Below, one piece after another: positions 2,824 through 63,302 of a stretch of DNA of 64,000 nt; the first letter of the stretch is position 1; each line of letters opens with the position of its first letter. Under the pieces are notes generated by a model, which ran no database searches, had not been told where the DNA came from, and saw nothing but the letters and a program-made list of their open reading frames with translations. This DNA is from a virus, in IMG/VR virus record IMGVR_UViG_3300022592_000003, positions 1 through 64,000 of that record; one strand, given 5' to 3'. The position numbers and the translations under genes were made by a program.

Positions 2824-2904
2824 ATGTGCAAATCATGCGGATGCGGATGCTCTAAGCCTAACTGCAAGGGCGCCTGCAAAAAGAAAAAAGGCGGTAAGAA
2901 GTAA
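2824..2904 (+). CDS. 26-aa Cys/Lys-rich micropeptide (not in ORF track)
   Basis: MCKSCGCGCSKPNCKGACKKKKGGKK*; AAGAAGG RBS; TAATG-coupled to the next ORF. Confidence 0.65.
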   Translation: MCKSCGCGCSKPNCKGACKKKKGGKK

Positions 2905-3104
2905 TGGCTAAGTCAGATAAAGAACAAGACGCAAAGCTTAAGAAGAAGATGACCCCAGCTCAGAAGAAGAAGTTTGACGCTGCGGACAAGGAGATGGACA
3001 AGACCAAACCTACTCGTAAAGAAGACGAAAAGATGGACAAGGCTTTGGCCGAGAAGATCACCAAAAAGTCTCCGGCTAAGAAGAAGGCCGACAAAAAGAA
3101 ATAA
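2904..3104 (+). CDS. Lys-rich small protein
   Basis: ORF ends ...KKSPAKKKADKKK. Confidence 0.75.
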   Translation: MAKSDKEQDAKLKKKMTPAQKKKFDAADKEMDKTKPTRKEDEKMDKALAEKITKKSPAKKKADKKK

Positions 3105-3369: not shown

Positions 3370-3631
3370 CATAAAGCAAACACTTAACAAGGTTATTCAG
3401 GCAGCAGAAAAGCAGCTAACAGAAGAGTATACATCTAGGCTTCGTAGCCATGCCCAGAGCTATGGTTGGCCTTCAGATCTTACTGATAGCCTACGCATTG
3501 ATTACGAAAACGGTAATCACACTATTAAGTATCCCTCTGAAGTAGAGGATCAAATTCTTACCTTAGAGTACGGGACTCAACACGTACCTCCCATGCCTGC
3601 TATGAGAACCTTCATGTTAGGAAACGCATAA
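3362..3631 (+). CDS. putative neck/tail-completion protein
   Basis: LEYGT...P.P.MR motif typical of HK97 gp10-like/neck proteins; position. Confidence 0.55.
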   Translation: MASIKQTLNKVIQAAEKQLTEEYTSRLRSHAQSYGWPSDLTDSLRIDYENGNHTIKYPSEVEDQILTLEYGTQHVPPMPAMRTFMLGNA

Positions 3632-4224
3632 TGCCATTTCTACTTAATGAAGACGCAGCCCTTAAGACCTTGCTTCAAGGCTTGACGGTATCAGATGGCG
3701 GAAACTCATCTAGGCCTGTTGCGGTCTACTACGGCCAACCAGATAAAGATATTCGTACACAGAGCTACCCATATATCACCTTAGATCTAGTAGGTGTTCG
3801 TGAGGATGTAGAGCGTGCCCACCGTGGCATCATTCAAACAACCTATACCCCTGAAGGTGCAGATAGCGCCAAAAGCTACACCACAGATTTTCCTATCCCG
3901 GTAGATTTGATCTACCAGGTATCTACTTGGTCTCGTCAGCCCCGTCACGATCGTCAGATCATGGCCCAGCTGTTTTCTCCTGGTAGACTACCACTTAGGT
4001 TTGGTCAACTTCCTATTCCAGAAGACGGTACTAATCGTCGTGTGGATATGTTGGGGTTCTCCAAAAGAGATACGACTGAGGGCGGAAAACGTCTCTTTAG
4101 TAATGTCTACAATATCCGAGTAAGTTCTGAGCTATTCCCTAGCCAGCTTGCTGAAGTACATCAAGTAACCCAAGACCCTAACATCTCGCTTAATAGTCAA
4201 AACACCCCATTCACTACAAACTGA
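3631..4224 (+). CDS. tail terminator/completion protein
   Basis: YPYITL and PVDLIYQV motifs; directly before the sheath gene. Confidence 0.65.
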   Translation: MPFLLNEDAALKTLLQGLTVSDGGNSSRPVAVYYGQPDKDIRTQSYPYITLDLVGVREDVERAHRGIIQTTYTPEGADSAKSYTTDFPIPVDLIYQVSTWSRQPRHDRQIMAQLFSPGRLPLRFGQLPIPEDGTNRRVDMLGFSKRDTTEGGKRLFSNVYNIRVSSELFPSQLAEVHQVTQDPNISLNSQNTPFTTN

Positions 4225-56754: not shown

Positions 56755-58590
56755 TTAACGATTGCGCTTTTTGATAGCGCCTGTGACTACTGACTTGGCA
56801 AACGGTAGAAGATCACGAGCCGACTTGATTCGACCATAGATCTCAGCACCGTGACGCCATTCATTCTCATTAGATCCTCGACCTGCATACCATTCAGCCG
56901 TACTGTCATCCATGATCAATGTCATGGCTGTTAGCACGCCTCGCTTGGCAATACGTTCGATGATCTCATCGTTCTTGTTGGCGTCAAACGCACCGTCGGT
57001 GATGATGAACAGCATCTTGTTCTTCTTACGAGAGGACATAAGTAACTGTTCGGCAGCAAGCAATGTGGAATACGGATTGGTTCCACCATTGCCATAGATG
57101 AACTTATACCTGCTCTTATCAGCAAGCTCAGTACGGCCATACGCCAGCTCAGCCTGGTCATCGAATGCATAGACTGTGACTGGAGCACCGATCTGTTCTA
57201 GAGCACGCTTGATTGTCCAGCATGCGATAGAAGCATCACGGTCGTTACCACCACCGGACATAGAGCCTGATCTATCCACCATGATTACGGCTTCAACATC
57301 AGCACCATCATTGCCTTCGTCCCAACGATCGAATGCTTCATCAACTTCACAGCCTCTGATAGCACGCTGAACATTGAGCTTACCGCTGGCTTCCTCACGA
57401 TGCCACATAGGTTCACACTCGTCACGCAAACGTTGTAGTTCACGAGCAAACTTGCGATACAAGACCATGGATTCATCAGGGACGATAGTCTTATCGAACT
57501 TACCCTTCTTGATCGCATCATCATGTTTACCGTCTCCGCCAACGATTACCTTCTGCTTAGTCTTGATATCCTGCTGAACGTCTTTACGTTCTAGCACTGT
57601 CTGGATAGTGTCCTCAAGCATGTCTTTGACTGATTGTGGAATACCACCAAGACTATCTACATGGCCTTGGCCAGGAGTCATAGATGGTGGTAGGTTGCTC
57701 TGCTGATTTTGCTCTCTAATGTCTAGAGCTTCTTGAGCAGATTGTGGTTGCGTGGTTGTTTGTGTTGGATTGGATTTAGGAGCGACTGATGTTGACTCAG
57801 CCTTACCCATACCACCAGCACGCTTGGCATCCTTCTCCTGAGCCTTGCCAGGTTCGGGACGACCTTTGGTTACTGGGTCACGATTAGTACAGCCGTTAGG
57901 ACCTTGCGGCATGTTCGGCATGTCTAGATTACCTAGCACCTCATCATTGAAGCGCTTGATAAGTTCCTGACCCTTAGCATAGTCACGTGGGAATGCCAAC
58001 AGACGATACTGATCTACGATGTCTGCGATTACTGGCACGAGTTCAGGCTTAGCAAACATATCTCTGAATGCTTGCCTGATTTCAATTGGTAGATATCTAC
58101 GACCACGGACTAGCAAATAGTTTCCTGCTGCTTCCTCCGGTGTTGTTGATAGCCACCTAGATATTGTTGCTGTTAGATACGGCGCAATAGATGGATAACG
58201 AGCGACTAGCAAGGTTTCAATACGCTGATCCTCCAGCATATTGGCTGCTTGCATTAAGTCGTTCTCGACTACCCACTTCATGAACGTAGTACCACGACGT
58301 GGTGTATACAAGTGATGAGCAAGCTCATGATAATTAAGGCCGTTGACTTGAGTTAGTGTCTCAAGATCTATCTCCTTGATCTCATCGGCATTGAACGTAA
58401 TAGATTGTCCGTCTGACCATGCTGGCGCTGGACCACCTTGAACTACGTTAATCGTAACCGGATCTCCAGAGAGAACACGGTCAGCCTGCTCATACACACG
58501 GCAGAGAGCGTTGAGTCGTACAGATCGTTCCTGTGCTTCCTCGTCACGTTCCTGCCGATACCACGCATCATTCAGGTCTTCCTCAAACAT
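56755..58590 (-). CDS. VWA-domain protein with N-terminal HExxH domain (CobT-like)
   Basis: HELAH, N.LED.RIE; MIDAS DRSGSM, GGT, ITDG. Confidence 0.9.
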   Translation of the reverse strand: MFEEDLNDAWYRQERDEEAQERSVRLNALCRVYEQADRVLSGDPVTINVVQGGPAPAWSDGQSITFNADEIKEIDLETLTQVNGLNYHELAHHLYTPRRGTTFMKWVVENDLMQAANMLEDQRIETLLVARYPSIAPYLTATISRWLSTTPEEAAGNYLLVRGRRYLPIEIRQAFRDMFAKPELVPVIADIVDQYRLLAFPRDYAKGQELIKRFNDEVLGNLDMPNMPQGPNGCTNRDPVTKGRPEPGKAQEKDAKRAGGMGKAESTSVAPKSNPTQTTTQPQSAQEALDIREQNQQSNLPPSMTPGQGHVDSLGGIPQSVKDMLEDTIQTVLERKDVQQDIKTKQKVIVGGDGKHDDAIKKGKFDKTIVPDESMVLYRKFARELQRLRDECEPMWHREEASGKLNVQRAIRGCEVDEAFDRWDEGNDGADVEAVIMVDRSGSMSGGGNDRDASIACWTIKRALEQIGAPVTVYAFDDQAELAYGRTELADKSRYKFIYGNGGTNPYSTLLAAEQLLMSSRKKNKMLFIITDGAFDANKNDEIIERIAKRGVLTAMTLIMDDSTAEWYAGRGSNENEWRHGAEIYGRIKSARDLLPFAKSVVTGAIKKRNR

Positions 58591-58599
58591 TTACCCTCC

Positions 58600-60009
58600 T
58601 TATACTATGGCGGTGTGTTGGGTTACCCATTGTGCTAACTGCTCATCAATAGGTAGGTCTACTTGCTGCTCAACTTCGATCTGGATTTCCATACCGAAGT
58701 CAGTCTTGATGTTGTGCTCGTGTGTCTGGAATACCAGACGTACGGATGCTTGCTCGTCTGCTGAGAAGTGAGCAATGAAGTTCTCAACTGCAAAGTCATA
58801 GCCGAGATCCTCATCCTTGATGAACTCCTCGATCTCCATGAGCATGTTAGTTGAGATTGGGGTCTCATACTGACCCTTGGCTGCCTCGCCACGCAATTGC
58901 TTAACGAGTGATAGCAAGGACTTGGATGAGACTAGCTTTGCCTCGACATTGTCGTCGTAATCCCATGACAGTTGAATGTCAAAGCGGTTACGCATAGCAA
59001 AGTTGAGCGGTGTGGTACCGATATAGTCTGGGTTCATGGTCGCAAAGATTGTTAGATCCTTGTGGGCCACGATTGTTTCACCCATATGATCGAGCAGCGT
59101 AATGCTACGACGACCATCGGTGAGTGGATATAGGGTGGTATAGATCTTAGGACTGATGAAGTTCATCTCGTCCAGTAGTAGTACACCACCGTTGCGAACA
59201 ACGTCAGTTACTGGCCCGTCAATCCAGCCATAGCTGCCGTTGCCATCAGGAATAAAGCCACCGAATAGCTGGCGAGACTCCATAGATGCGTTACCAGATA
59301 CTGTTGCCATACGCAAGCCACGTGCTGCGGCCCACGCTTCAACAGCTGTAGTCTTACCGGGGCCGGTTGGGCCGTAGATAAGAACGTTGATGTGCTTATC
59401 ACGTGCTTTGTCGAAGATGTTGAAGTCTTCAACGTTGTACAGCTTACGATGTACATATCGTTCTGCCAAATGCTGTGGCGGAACTGTAGCTAGTGATACA
59501 GCAAATGTTGGAGACGCTGTCTGCTGTACAGGAGCGGCATCCTCGTTTGTTTGTGTTGGGACAGGAACTACTAGAGGAACTGTAGTGCTTGTCGCAGCAC
59601 GATTATCTGTTACGTATGCTTCCAATGAATCATCTCCGATGCTGATTTGTTCGTAGAAGTTACACACAACATCTACCAGAGGTGTTGTGTCTGTTGTTGG
59701 TTCAGCCTTGGAATGCTTGTCGCATGCCTTGGTGCCCAACACTGGGGAATATCCCTTGGAAGTCATGGCACGCTCATCCGCTGGCGTAACGTATACGCCA
59801 ACAGGAGTCCGTGTCAATATCTCACTATCCAAAATGCTACTAGTTAGACTGTCAAGAGTAGTTTCCTCCCACTTATTGTGAGGACCCTTAGTTCCATCGG
59901 TCAACCTAGAGTACACACGCACATTACCATCATGCGGTGTGATAAGAACTTGACGACGCTTGCCGTTCAAGCCCTCATCGTATGACTCAGTGAACATTGC
60001 TATGTCCAT
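58600..60009 (-). CDS. MoxR/CobS-like AAA+ ATPase
   Basis: GPTGPGKT, LLDEMN, ATMNP.Y.GT..LN.A..NRF. Confidence 0.92.
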   Translation of the reverse strand: MDIAMFTESYDEGLNGKRRQVLITPHDGNVRVYSRLTDGTKGPHNKWEETTLDSLTSSILDSEILTRTPVGVYVTPADERAMTSKGYSPVLGTKACDKHSKAEPTTDTTPLVDVVCNFYEQISIGDDSLEAYVTDNRAATSTTVPLVVPVPTQTNEDAAPVQQTASPTFAVSLATVPPQHLAERYVHRKLYNVEDFNIFDKARDKHINVLIYGPTGPGKTTAVEAWAAARGLRMATVSGNASMESRQLFGGFIPDGNGSYGWIDGPVTDVVRNGGVLLLDEMNFISPKIYTTLYPLTDGRRSITLLDHMGETIVAHKDLTIFATMNPDYIGTTPLNFAMRNRFDIQLSWDYDDNVEAKLVSSKSLLSLVKQLRGEAAKGQYETPISTNMLMEIEEFIKDEDLGYDFAVENFIAHFSADEQASVRLVFQTHEHNIKTDFGMEIQIEVEQQVDLPIDEQLAQWVTQHTAIV

Positions 60010-60035
60010 TTGTTACCCTTTCTCTCGGTTATTGC

Positions 60036-60275
60036 TTAGTTGTCAGGACCGAACAGTCGTTCGGCCATCACAGTTATGAAGGTGAAGCTTGCTTGCCTAG
60101 ATTGTGGCCACTCAGTAATCAATTCAAATAGAATATCTTTCTCAGAGGCACTATCTATTACTTTGCTGAATTGTCCTTGAGCAAACTCAATGAACTCTTC
60201 ACGTTCTTCTTCAGGAATCATGTCAAGAGTAAACTCTTGTGGTTCGATTCCCTCATCGTCACATTCGTGACACAT
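60036..60275 (-). CDS. acidic hypothetical protein
   Basis: AGAAAGGA RBS. Confidence 0.7.
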   Translation of the reverse strand: MCHECDDEGIEPQEFTLDMIPEEEREEFIEFAQGQFSKVIDSASEKDILFELITEWPQSRQASFTFITVMAERLFGPDN

Positions 60276-60293
60276 ATGCTTTCCTTTCTCTAG

Positions 60294-60457
60294 ATGTTTG
60301 GTTGGCTTACCTCTGGCGCCTTCAGGGACTTTTGGGTCTAGCTCAACGTCACCTCAACTGCCGCTACACACGATGGTATCTGTGTGCACTAGTCATTTTG
60401 GATCGGTCTCTTGCATCACCGCCGGTATGTCGGAAGTAGGCTTAGCCAACCAAACAT
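60294..60457 (-). ncRNA. candidate structured RNA
   Basis: Intergenic; perfect 14-bp closing stem (ATGTTTGGTTGGCT / AGCCAACCAAACAT) with internal hairpins. Confidence 0.6.
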
Positions 60458-60467
60458 AGCTGACAAC

Positions 60468-60764
60468 CTAGAGCTGCCAGCCGATCGAGACACTTACTGA
60501 ACCATCTACATCATAGTGATCTAGATTGATTCCACGTTGCCAGCGGTCAAGCATTACCTTTTTACCGCTTTCACGTGTGGATTCGTAGCAACCAAGATAT
60601 GACTCGTGGTAATGCTCGAAGCCTTTATGTCGGGTGTTATATATTTCCAAGTACTGTTGATGTGCTTGGATACGACGTCCGCAATTGCCGCAAGAGTTGA
60701 TTGCTGTTACCAGTTCATTCTCAGAGGCTGTCTGCGACGCCCTTAACTTAGCCTTTTCAGACAT
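60468..60764 (-). CDS. hypothetical protein (CGNC...H...C)
   Basis: AGAAAGGG RBS. Confidence 0.7.
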   Translation of the reverse strand: MSEKAKLRASQTASENELVTAINSCGNCGRRIQAHQQYLEIYNTRHKGFEHYHESYLGCYESTRESGKKVMLDRWQRGINLDHYDVDGSVSVSIGWQL

Positions 60765-60795
60765 AGTCACCCTTTCTCGGGTTTGTTTGTGTTGG

Positions 60796-62611: not shown

Positions 62612-62866
62612 TTAGTAGATTGTCTCTACACTGCTGTGTAGAGTTGTGATGCCATCCTCATCCCATAGGAATGAGGCTTCCTTGTAGGTCAGTCCCTTAT
62701 AGGCAACCGCATCTACAATGAATTCTAGTCGTGCGATAGAGCGTTCAAAGACTCCTTGAACAGTCTCATCAATCAGTAATATGCGTCCTTGCTTGAAGGC
62801 TTGTTCTTGTACCTCAGCAATAGTTAGCTTAGGTGAGAGGCGCATCTCAAGATATATATCGTCCAT
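62612..62866 (-). CDS. hypothetical protein
   Basis: TAATG-coupled. Confidence 0.65.
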   Translation of the reverse strand: MDDIYLEMRLSPKLTIAEVQEQAFKQGRILLIDETVQGVFERSIARLEFIVDAVAYKGLTYKEASFLWDEDGITTLHSSVETIY

Positions 62867-63132
62867 TATTTATGCCAATCTACTAGATAGGTTGTGCCCC
62901 ACTTATCATAGGGAATGTTGATGATGGTCCAAATCTTCCACCACCTATATCCTGCTCGTGATAGTTCAGTGCCGTTGTAATGGGCAAAGTCTTCATGATC
63001 TAATGCTCGCTCTATCGCAAAACTTGATAGATGATTGCAAGCATTGGCAAACCACCTGAGTGGCAAGATGTTGGTCTTGTGCTCTGGTGTGGTTGAATAC
63101 TCAAACCTACCGTGCAAGTCTTCCGGTTCCAT
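62866..63132 (-). CDS. hypothetical protein
   Basis: AGAAAGGAG RBS. Confidence 0.7.
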   Translation of the reverse strand: MEPEDLHGRFEYSTTPEHKTNILPLRWFANACNHLSSFAIERALDHEDFAHYNGTELSRAGYRWWKIWTIINIPYDKWGTTYLVDWHK

Positions 63133-63229: not shown

Positions 63230-63302
63230 TGCCCTCAGCCAGAATCGAACTGGCAACACTCACCTTAGGACGATGATGTTCTATCCATTGAACTATGAGG
63301 GC
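63230..63302 (-). tRNA. tRNA-Arg (anticodon CCU), CCA not encoded
   Basis: GCCCTCA acceptor stem; GTTC/GAAC D arm; TCATC-GTCCTAA-GGTGA anticodon arm; GCCAG-TTCGATT-CTGGC T arm. Confidence 0.93.

Follow-up and report, generated by a model that had tools for sequence, protein, structure and literature searches.

The early mRNAs of phage T7 carry RNase III hairpins between their cistrons, and phages P1 and P4 make antisense immunity RNAs (C4 and CI, respectively). Stable RNAs that are excised from longer transcripts are usually built with their 5′ and 3′ ends joined in a long helix. Protein-binding leaders of ribosomal-protein and phage operons are exemplified by the T4 gene 32 leader, mentioned by Fremin et al. 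2023 (PMC10690425), who also describe unnamed candidate structured phage RNAs from IMG/VR, with models of 29–151 nt. In jumbo phages, the pairing of a MoxR AAA protein with a metallopeptidase–vWA protein has been proposed to constitute a virion-assembly chaperone, according to Iyer et al. (PMC7824862).

The DNA analysed here (the window) comprises the initial 64 kb of an IMG/VR record of 89,242 bp, approximately 89% complete. A structured RNA lies on its minus strand, in the leader of an operon for three proteins: a small acidic one of MC(H/Y)xC type, a MoxR-type AAA ATPase and a metallopeptidase–vWA protein. The features of the locus are as follows, in the direction of transcription.

60784–60795, minus strand: nearest copy of the 12-mer repeat, 327 nt upstream of the RNA
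60468–60770, minus strand: 100-aa ORF upstream of the RNA, variable among relatives
60294–60457, minus strand: whole structured RNA, 164 nt, the single copy in the 89-kb genome
60444–60457, minus strand: P1 5′ arm, ATGTTTGGTTGGCT
60435–60441, minus strand: P2 5′ strand (GCCU, bulged A, CU)
60425–60430, minus strand: core 5′ strand, ACAUAC (P3, single U, P4)
60365–60388, minus strand: central variable hairpin (UGCACAC-A-GAU, loop ACC, AUC-GUGUGUA)
60322–60330, minus strand: core 3′ strand, AGU-CCC-UGA
60309–60314, minus strand: P2 3′ strand, AGAGGU
60294–60307, minus strand: P1 3′ arm, AGCCAACCAAACAT, which contains CCAACCAAACA
60036–60275, minus strand: 79-aa acidic gene (MCHECDDE..., pI 4.05), downstream of the RNA
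58600–60009, minus strand: AAA_5 (MoxR/CobS-like) ATPase, 469 aa (PF07728, E = 6e-20; phrog_249)
56755–58590, minus strand: HExxH + vWA protein, 611 aa, downstream of the ATPase

In the 611-aa protein, a HELAH sequence (residue 88) and a MIDAS motif, DRSGS (DxSxS; residue 439), were recognized; its VWA_2 score of 26.2 bits is slightly below the 27-bit cut-off. Because of the HELAH and MIDAS motifs, the window pair fits the pair of Iyer et al. (PMC7824862). Pfam revealed nothing RNA-related in the vWA protein, and in the literature no paper was found that connects a MoxR/vWA or CobT/AAA phage pair with an RNA.

Secondary structure and covariation of the RNA

The RNA runs from 60457 to 60294 on the minus strand, the position and strand correctly assigned to it in the first-pass annotation, and the outermost 14 bases at its two ends pair perfectly. 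The closing stem claimed there is present as described (ATGTTTGGTTGGCT / AGCCAACCAAACAT), its arms being 136 nt apart. It is one of only seven inverted repeats (12-nt seed, ≤400 nt) in the 64-kb window, and the number of such 14-mers expected by chance is estimated at approximately 0.1. The 5′ end of the RNA is situated 10 nt past the stop codon of the 100-aa ORF. The 3′ end of P1 is 4 nt from AGAAAGG, the RBS of the 79-aa gene, and the spacing noted earlier between the stem and the RBS of the gene preceding the AAA/VWA pair thus holds. The minimum free energy (MFE) of the 164 nt was −57.1 kcal/mol, as compared with −41.2 ± 4.0 for shuffled sequences (n=200; z=−4.0). A terminator-like hairpin at 60458–60482 (minus strand), which extends over the upstream stop codon and adjoins the RNA at its 5′ end, is not conserved in relatives. 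Elsewhere in the window, a 20-nt inverted repeat (62724–62743 and 63008–63027; 85% complementary, 264 nt apart) was observed beside the tRNA at 63230–63302.

Relatives of the RNA were collected in several ways. A search with the ATPase yielded 16 distinct IMG/VR loci (71–91% amino acid identity); a full-length but weakly similar nhmmer match was found at the same place in 14 of these, and the copies in L013 and L015 were recognized by eye. A DNA pattern constructed from the conserved ends identified 14 viral stretches, two of which were new contigs, and the same approach identified 22 stretches in metagenomes, 10 of them identical to sequences already in the set. The metagenome stretch L050, which gave no covariance model match, was a false match to the pattern and was discarded. 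After the ATPase and pattern searches, the set comprised 27 distinct copies. A further 61 loci (51–90% identity) were recovered with a profile built from 10 ATPases, 17 of them being contigs already in the set. Among the remaining 44, the covariance model R1 scored strongly in eight (79.6–146.6 bits, 300–470 nt upstream of the ATPase); in the other 36, no match was obtained at E values up to 1 beyond three weak scores. In total, 34 copies, 33 of them distinct, were found in uncultured freshwater phage contigs.

A blastn search of the region against cultured phages yielded no match, and 185,579 species genomes, scanned for the exact pattern and hence only for copies that keep it, yielded 0 matches. 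The closest cultured phages, as judged by the ATPase, are actinophages with 45–46% identity (Gordonia phages such as DalanDe and GMA6, and Brevibacterium phage Cantare). DalanDe and Cantare possess an AAA/CobT-like pair with a short upstream gap and no match to R1.

The commonest subtype of the RNA is predicted to form a single unbranched rod, P1 to P8, i.e. a long bulged hairpin. From its base, the rod consists of P1 (13–15 bp), P2 (6 bp, interrupted by a bulged A), an asymmetric loop and P3, followed by a U opposite CCC, P4, a U.C mismatch, P4′ and a variable distal hairpin. In P2, CC, CU and UC covary with the partners GG, AG and GA, and the closing pair is G:U in 26 of 27 sequences. P3 pairs family-wide as N-C-A with U-G-N′, and its outer position is occupied by five pair types (GU 7, AU 5, CG 5, GC 5 and UA 1). 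P4 is formed by ACU with AGU, and P4′, which follows the U.C mismatch, by RAY with RUY. The conserved CAGUCCCUG supplies the 3′ side of both P3 and P4, with a CCC bulge that faces one U.

Several of the internal helices drawn in the first-pass annotation can be placed in this family-wide structure. The GCACAC-A-GAU/AUC-GUGUGU hairpin is confirmed, and relatives possess a covarying counterpart of it; other copies keep the shape of this central hairpin with differing sequences. The CCU/AGG helix belongs to the covarying P2. The CUUC/GAAG and CGGU/ACCG helices, by comparison, are not conserved in relatives, and family-wide the CU of CUUC pairs instead with the AG of AGAGGU. The two CCAAAA segments (60396–60401 and 60330–60335), if taken as a feature of the family, must likewise be given up, as they are found in the window copy only. 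That copy is an atypical, weak member, with two of three pairs formed in each of P3 and P4, and the distal fold of its own subtype is provisional.

Covariation was assessed in a structure-blind MAFFT alignment of the 27 distinct copies. Standard pairs occupied 85.3% of 1285 cells, as opposed to 30.8–39.2% in controls in which the partners were slid by 1–3 columns in the same alignment. Both sides had changed in 35 of the 50 pairs, and none of 500 shuffles attained any of five covariation measures. It is apparent that pairing was most complete in helix 1 (P1 + P2), with 97.8% of cells paired and both-side changes in 13 of 19 pairs; the corresponding proportions of paired cells were 95.1% for P3, 75.8% for P4 and 66–81% for the distal helices (P5–P7). 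A model-fitted alignment of the 33 distinct copies, which leans towards the model, gave 86.4% paired cells and both-side changes in 41 of 49 pairs; in helix 7, 10 of 11 pairs had changed on both sides in that alignment. RNAalifold, applied to 14 sequences, returned P1 and P2, with 13 compensatory changes in 19 pairs. In L070 and L074 the inner part of P1 is altered yet paired (GGCUAACU with AGUUAGUU/AGUUAGUC).

The further long-range helices were found by comparison of subgroups. A simple stacked-pair scan of the MAFFT alignment recovered P1 only, and the MFE folds of single sequences were mutually inconsistent in the interior. Two candidate elements were dropped: a CAG-UCC-CUG triloop hairpin, in which CAG and UGN were found to covary with the 5′ strand, and a CGCA/UGCG helix at the base of the central hairpin, which is broken in L009, L010 and L032, with a shifted register that holds.

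A search for homologues and a test of their covariation had been proposed in the first-pass annotation as a check of its claim of a structured RNA. With 34 copies found and strong covariation among them, and with a fold more stable than those of shuffled sequences, that claim is borne out: on comparative evidence, the element is a genuine structured RNA of approximately 146–174 nt, in the same sense as the genes.

The RNA was also compared with known classes. At the gathering score, Rfam 15 detected only the tRNA at 63230–63302 in the whole window. At E values up to 10, the region 60100–60700 gave only SNORD29 noise inside the upstream ORF, and the commonest subtype (L005, 1480–1790) gave 0 matches. 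The Rfam search recommended earlier therefore assigned the element to no family, whether riboswitch, ribozyme, 6S, Y RNA, pRNA, raiA or phage motif, and no ribozyme family appeared among the matches for the window element or the commonest subtype. Nor was there a conserved ORF, the other explanation for which a check had been suggested: an open frame is present in at most five of 33 copies for any frame, and the copies, at 146–174 nt, differ in length by amounts that are not multiples of three. In the 89-kb genome, PF05731 (TROVE) gave 0 matches, while control genomes responded; PF00078 (reverse transcriptase, a requirement for a retron) also gave 0 matches in the genome.

Signals that might relate the RNA to expression of the operon were sought in the leader. 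In the folded leader, the SD and start codon are free: paired probability averaged 0.185 over the stretch from the SD to the AUG. No terminator was found at P1 in a terminator scan, and no U-run directly follows the stem in the window (CUAGAGAAAGG is found there) or in relatives, which have A/G-rich RBS regions at this point. No alternative fold of the leader was found. Since the SD and start codon are free, and neither a terminator nor an alternative fold was detected, no expression platform can be named, and the riboswitch interpretation advanced earlier gains no positive support. No sigma-70-like promoter was found on the gene strand. P1 (13–15 bp) and P2 (6 bp), separated by AA/A and the A bulge, stack to approximately 20 bp, i.e. 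the near-continuous helix of about two turns associated with RNase III.

Genomic partners and other elements at the same site

The ATG of the MC(H/Y)xC gene lies 12–24 nt past the RNA in 34 of 34 copies, while blastn sorts the upstream flanks into no fewer than 14 unrelated clusters. The distance from the upstream stop codon to the start of the RNA is 2–25 nt. As judged from these flanks, the RNA travels with the downstream operon and not with the upstream gene. In the metagenome contig L049 (approximately 3620–3650), the small gene after the RNA reads MCHVSRM*, owing to a frameshift or an assembly error.

A freshwater metatranscriptome contained a 247-nt contig, a relative of approximately 96% identity, that covers 60370–60617. 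This contig runs from the last part of the upstream ORF into the 5′ half of the RNA, which is compatible with co-transcription, although carry-over of DNA is possible. In the RNA run X13, positions 59900–60311 were uncovered save for a 35-nt piece of an otherwise unrelated contig, from which nothing was concluded.

Of the 36 loci without the rod, 32 were inspected, and other structured elements were observed at the same site. The first of these is a longer, uncatalogued RNA of 178–232 nt, designated type II, which was found by means of anchors in 14 of 24 loci (nine distinct) and occupies the site of the rod (L068, 2438–2613; also L078, L079, L082, L096, L104, L107 and L088). The ATPases of these phages are 66–70% identical. 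Type II RNAs start ..GAAGCACUCG and end ..CCUUCGUGCGUA, and are usually located 10–60 nt downstream of a copy of the 12-mer. The core of the rod was present in seven of the eight type II RNAs examined; L088 failed the regular expression, and L091, in which the core was absent by eye, was left out of the count. All 28 of 28 P3 pairs were formed, in five different 4-bp versions. The core loop has a U opposite CYC, then P4 (ACU:AGY) and an N.C mismatch, and 25 of 35 P4′ pairs were formed. By inspection, the basal helix of type II is short (approximately 4–5 bp), the long P1 being absent, and a separate GC-rich hairpin is situated between the RNA and the RBS of the small gene. Across the wider clade, it is thus the internal-loop core of P3 and P4 that is conserved, rather than the long stem.

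Further elements were seen in other lineages. In rod-less relatives, a GC-rich hairpin of 12–16 bp directly precedes the RBS of the small gene. In phages whose ATPases are 51–54% identical, a tRNA-like minihelix with an acceptor-like stem and a T-arm with a GGTTCGAGTCC-type loop directly precedes the RBS of the ATPase, approximately 60–130 nt upstream of the ATPase start (3001), in L099, L103, L106, L113, L097, L098 and L115. Rfam gave no match for the type II RNA and did not call the minihelix a tRNA. In L068-type loci, conserved hairpins (TTCCCTAAC...GTTAGGGAA and TGTCATA...TATGACA) were noted at approximately 2900–3000, between the small gene and the ATPase, and both are accompanied by AACGATTCCATTACC, before the RBS of the ATPase. 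The corresponding gap in the rod clade is only about 26 nt.

Exchange of the interior and the 12-mer repeat

Between subtypes, the interior of the RNA is approximately 54–61% identical, which is near the floor for gapped alignments, as against 66–82% for the flanking genes. Within one subtype, the interior is well conserved despite distant ATPases. When the interior types were mapped onto an ATPase tree of 23 rows, with the type labels assigned by eye, 12 changes were counted, as compared with a mean of 11.2 for shuffled labels; the tree omits 11 of the 34 copies, because their loci lack an ATPase or because they are duplicates. By this measure, the distribution of interior types over the ATPase tree is random.

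A direct comparison is afforded by L013 (type D) and L014 (type B). The flanks of the RNA are 96.6% and 98.0% identical in these two loci, and the L013 interior (3608–3703) gives no alignment with that of L014. The breakpoints of the cassette fall in the conserved inverted arms. Read from these alignments, the interior has been replaced precisely, in the manner of a cassette, between near-identical (97–98%) phages. In a pond DNA run, a contig likewise shares the flank and then diverges into a different interior (loose end at 60310). A block of approximately 700 nt with two ORFs is also replaced between the same two loci, about 3 kb upstream of the RNA (L013 1–695 and L014 1–667). A crude duplex test of the 9.3-kb L013 and L014 loci gave no cognate-specific target that co-varies with the interior; the best duplexes, at −49.4 and −47.2, lie inside the range obtained with shuffled RNAs (−42.6 to −51.4).

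The first-pass annotation had linked the RNA to a repeated 12-mer, CCAACACAAACA, of which the window holds eight exact copies where 0.04 would be expected. The likeness itself is as described, the 3′ arm containing the 12-mer minus one A (CCAACCAAACA as compared with CCAACACAAACA). Not a single letter of the 12-mer differs in 112 of 117 loci. One copy (59548–59559, minus strand) lies at approximately nt 451–462 inside the ATPase gene in most loci, and this site is kept from 90% to about 52% protein identity; its fixed intragenic position points to selection at the nucleotide level, independently of RBS positions.

The outer part of P1, for its part, varies freely among copies. The suggestion that the 5′ arm could pair with any copy of the 12-mer stands for a subset and fails as a family trait: the predicted duplex is strong (−11.9 kcal/mol or better) in 11 of the 34 copies, and weak in the other 23 (−8.2 to −1.8), with essentially none in L070 and L074. 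Since only 11 of 34 are strong and outer P1 is variable, the likeness of the arm to the 12-mer is confined to one subset of copies and does not reflect a conserved interaction. An RNA-based control system formed with the repeats, as proposed earlier, is thus argued against by a 12-mer that is invariant, an outer P1 that drifts and weak duplexes in 23 of 34 copies.

Possible roles and comparison with known systems

We lean tentatively towards a cis-acting leader module, recognized by a factor at the P3/P4 loop and carrying P1 and P2 as a processing or stabilizing stalk; this reading of the sequence comparisons is plausible, somewhat short of probable. The RNA would act in cis on the polycistronic transcript, and a host or phage factor would recognize the conserved P3/P4 internal loop. 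The P1–P2 stack of approximately 20 bp would be a stalk for double-strand-specific (RNase III-type) processing, or a stabilizing one; this would fix the 5′ terminus of the operon mRNA, or govern its stability or translation, and the rod might thereby be freed as a discrete RNA. Recombination in the conserved stem arms would account for the exchange of the discrete, conserved interior types between phages. As type II RNAs are without the long P1, basal RNase III processing cannot be the function shared by the rod and type II. Counted against the leader module are the unsequestered SD and start codon, the fact that no terminator or alternative fold was found, and the pairing of P5–P7 in only 66–81% of cells. 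The hopping of conserved interior types, moreover, is not predicted by a plain stability hairpin, and fits a trans-acting RNA at least equally.

Such an RNA, a stand-alone stable ncRNA cut from the polycistronic transcript at P1, may be envisaged to bind or decoy a host or phage factor, purely by analogy with 6S RNA, Y RNA or the decoy RNAs of viruses, or to form a particle with the MoxR/vWA proteins. Its 5′ and 3′ ends are joined by a long covarying helix, the rod carries conserved internal loops, and the interiors fall into discrete, conserved types that pass horizontally between phages, all of which speak for a role in trans. We nonetheless consider it on the unlikely side, as neither a promoter nor a terminator of the RNA's own was found, the RNA starts 2–25 nt after the upstream stop codon, type II relatives are without the long closing stem, and no RNA-binding partner is evident (no TROVE protein, a small protein of pI 4.05 and a vWA protein with nothing RNA-related). 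At the other extreme, the element might merely be a hairpin for the processing or stability of the mRNA ('RNA punctuation'), recognized as a long helix and in no more specific way. The hairpins before the small gene's RBS in rod-less relatives, and the parallel with the RNase III hairpins of T7, are in keeping with this; the conservation of internal loops and single-stranded motifs, the P3/P4 core held in common with type II RNAs of short basal helix, and a length of approximately 165 nt, which far exceeds the needs of a cleavage site, make it rather improbable. A DNA-level element (a recombination hot spot, origin or cruciform) would account for the conserved inverted arms and the cassette breakpoints inside them. 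It is very hard to credit, however, in view of the frequent, near-invariant G:U pairs, which would be A.C mismatches on the other strand, the R1 scores for the window copy of 95.7 bits on the sense strand and 20 bits on the opposite strand, and the compensatory changes that run through internal helices without a DNA rationale.

The exchange of interiors also raises the matter of specificity. An RNA-based specificity or immunity determinant, whose interior types would pair with phage or host RNA targets, resembles the earlier idea of a control system, minus the 12-mer. Discrete interior alleles scattered on the ATPase tree, and the precise replacement of the interior between phages that are 97–98% identical, match the pattern that diversity-promoting selection would leave at a locus; ordinary phage mosaicism could give the same pattern, the pairing with the 12-mer is not conserved, and the best duplexes of L013 and L014 were within the shuffled range in the crude test of 9.3 kb. 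A determinant of this kind is regarded as rather improbable. A broader and hardly less speculative version is that the rod is a scaffold for exchangeable 'specificity cassettes', its discrete interior alleles kept by selection, shuffled between co-circulating lake phages via the stem arms and each matched to a factor of the host or of a rival phage; an example would be an RNA-based determinant of immunity, exclusion or anti-defence, linked to the MoxR/vWA operon. This, too, is improbable.

The structured RNAs of uncultured phages are mostly uncharted, and the rod has unusually clean comparative support. It has, in addition, a fixed genomic partner in the MoxR AAA and metallopeptidase–vWA pair, and goes beyond a plain leader hairpin in having an asymmetric core shared with a second RNA and an interior that behaves as a horizontally exchanged cassette. 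If the core is a site of protein or RNA recognition, it would offer a way into the control or use of the enigmatic MoxR/vWA module by these phages; should the cassettes determine specificity, they would represent a new kind of RNA-based phage determinant.

Compared with the described systems, the rod resembles the RNase III hairpins of the T7 early mRNAs in being an irregular, long intergenic hairpin in a phage polycistronic unit, beside the next RBS, and in its basal stack of approximately 20 bp. It differs from them in that it is three times longer, has conserved loop sequences and an exchangeable interior, is only putatively cleaved and has type II relatives without the long stem. With protein-binding operon leaders it shares a tie to the downstream operon, the upstream genes being variable, and the occurrence of different structured leaders at the same site across lineages. 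Unlike the T4 gene 32 leader, it does not occlude the SD, it is larger and rod-shaped, and its binder is only putative. As in the case of C4 of P1 and CI of P4, the RNA is embedded in the leader of its own operon and its allelic types could set specificity, whereas for the rod no conserved pairing with the 12-mer and, in the crude test of the 9.3-kb loci, no target complementarity was found.

Y RNA, the partner of Ro60 (TROVE + vWA), and 6S RNA are similar to the rod in having ends paired in a long stem and conserved loops, and a vWA protein is encoded near the rod. In contrast to these RNAs, the genome has no TROVE match, neither Rfam family matches and there is no 6S-like central bubble; and the window vWA protein has an HExxH metallopeptidase motif. 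The candidates of Fremin et al. 2023 (PMC10690425) derive from the same data source and are, like the rod, covarying intergenic phage RNAs; set against their models of at most 151 nt, the rod is mostly 161–174 nt, a comparison by length that leaves room for a fragment of it among them. What is new here is that a second RNA, type II, found in more distant phages, shares the core of the rod, that the interior type is random with respect to the ATPase tree, and that the interior is replaced precisely between closely related phages.
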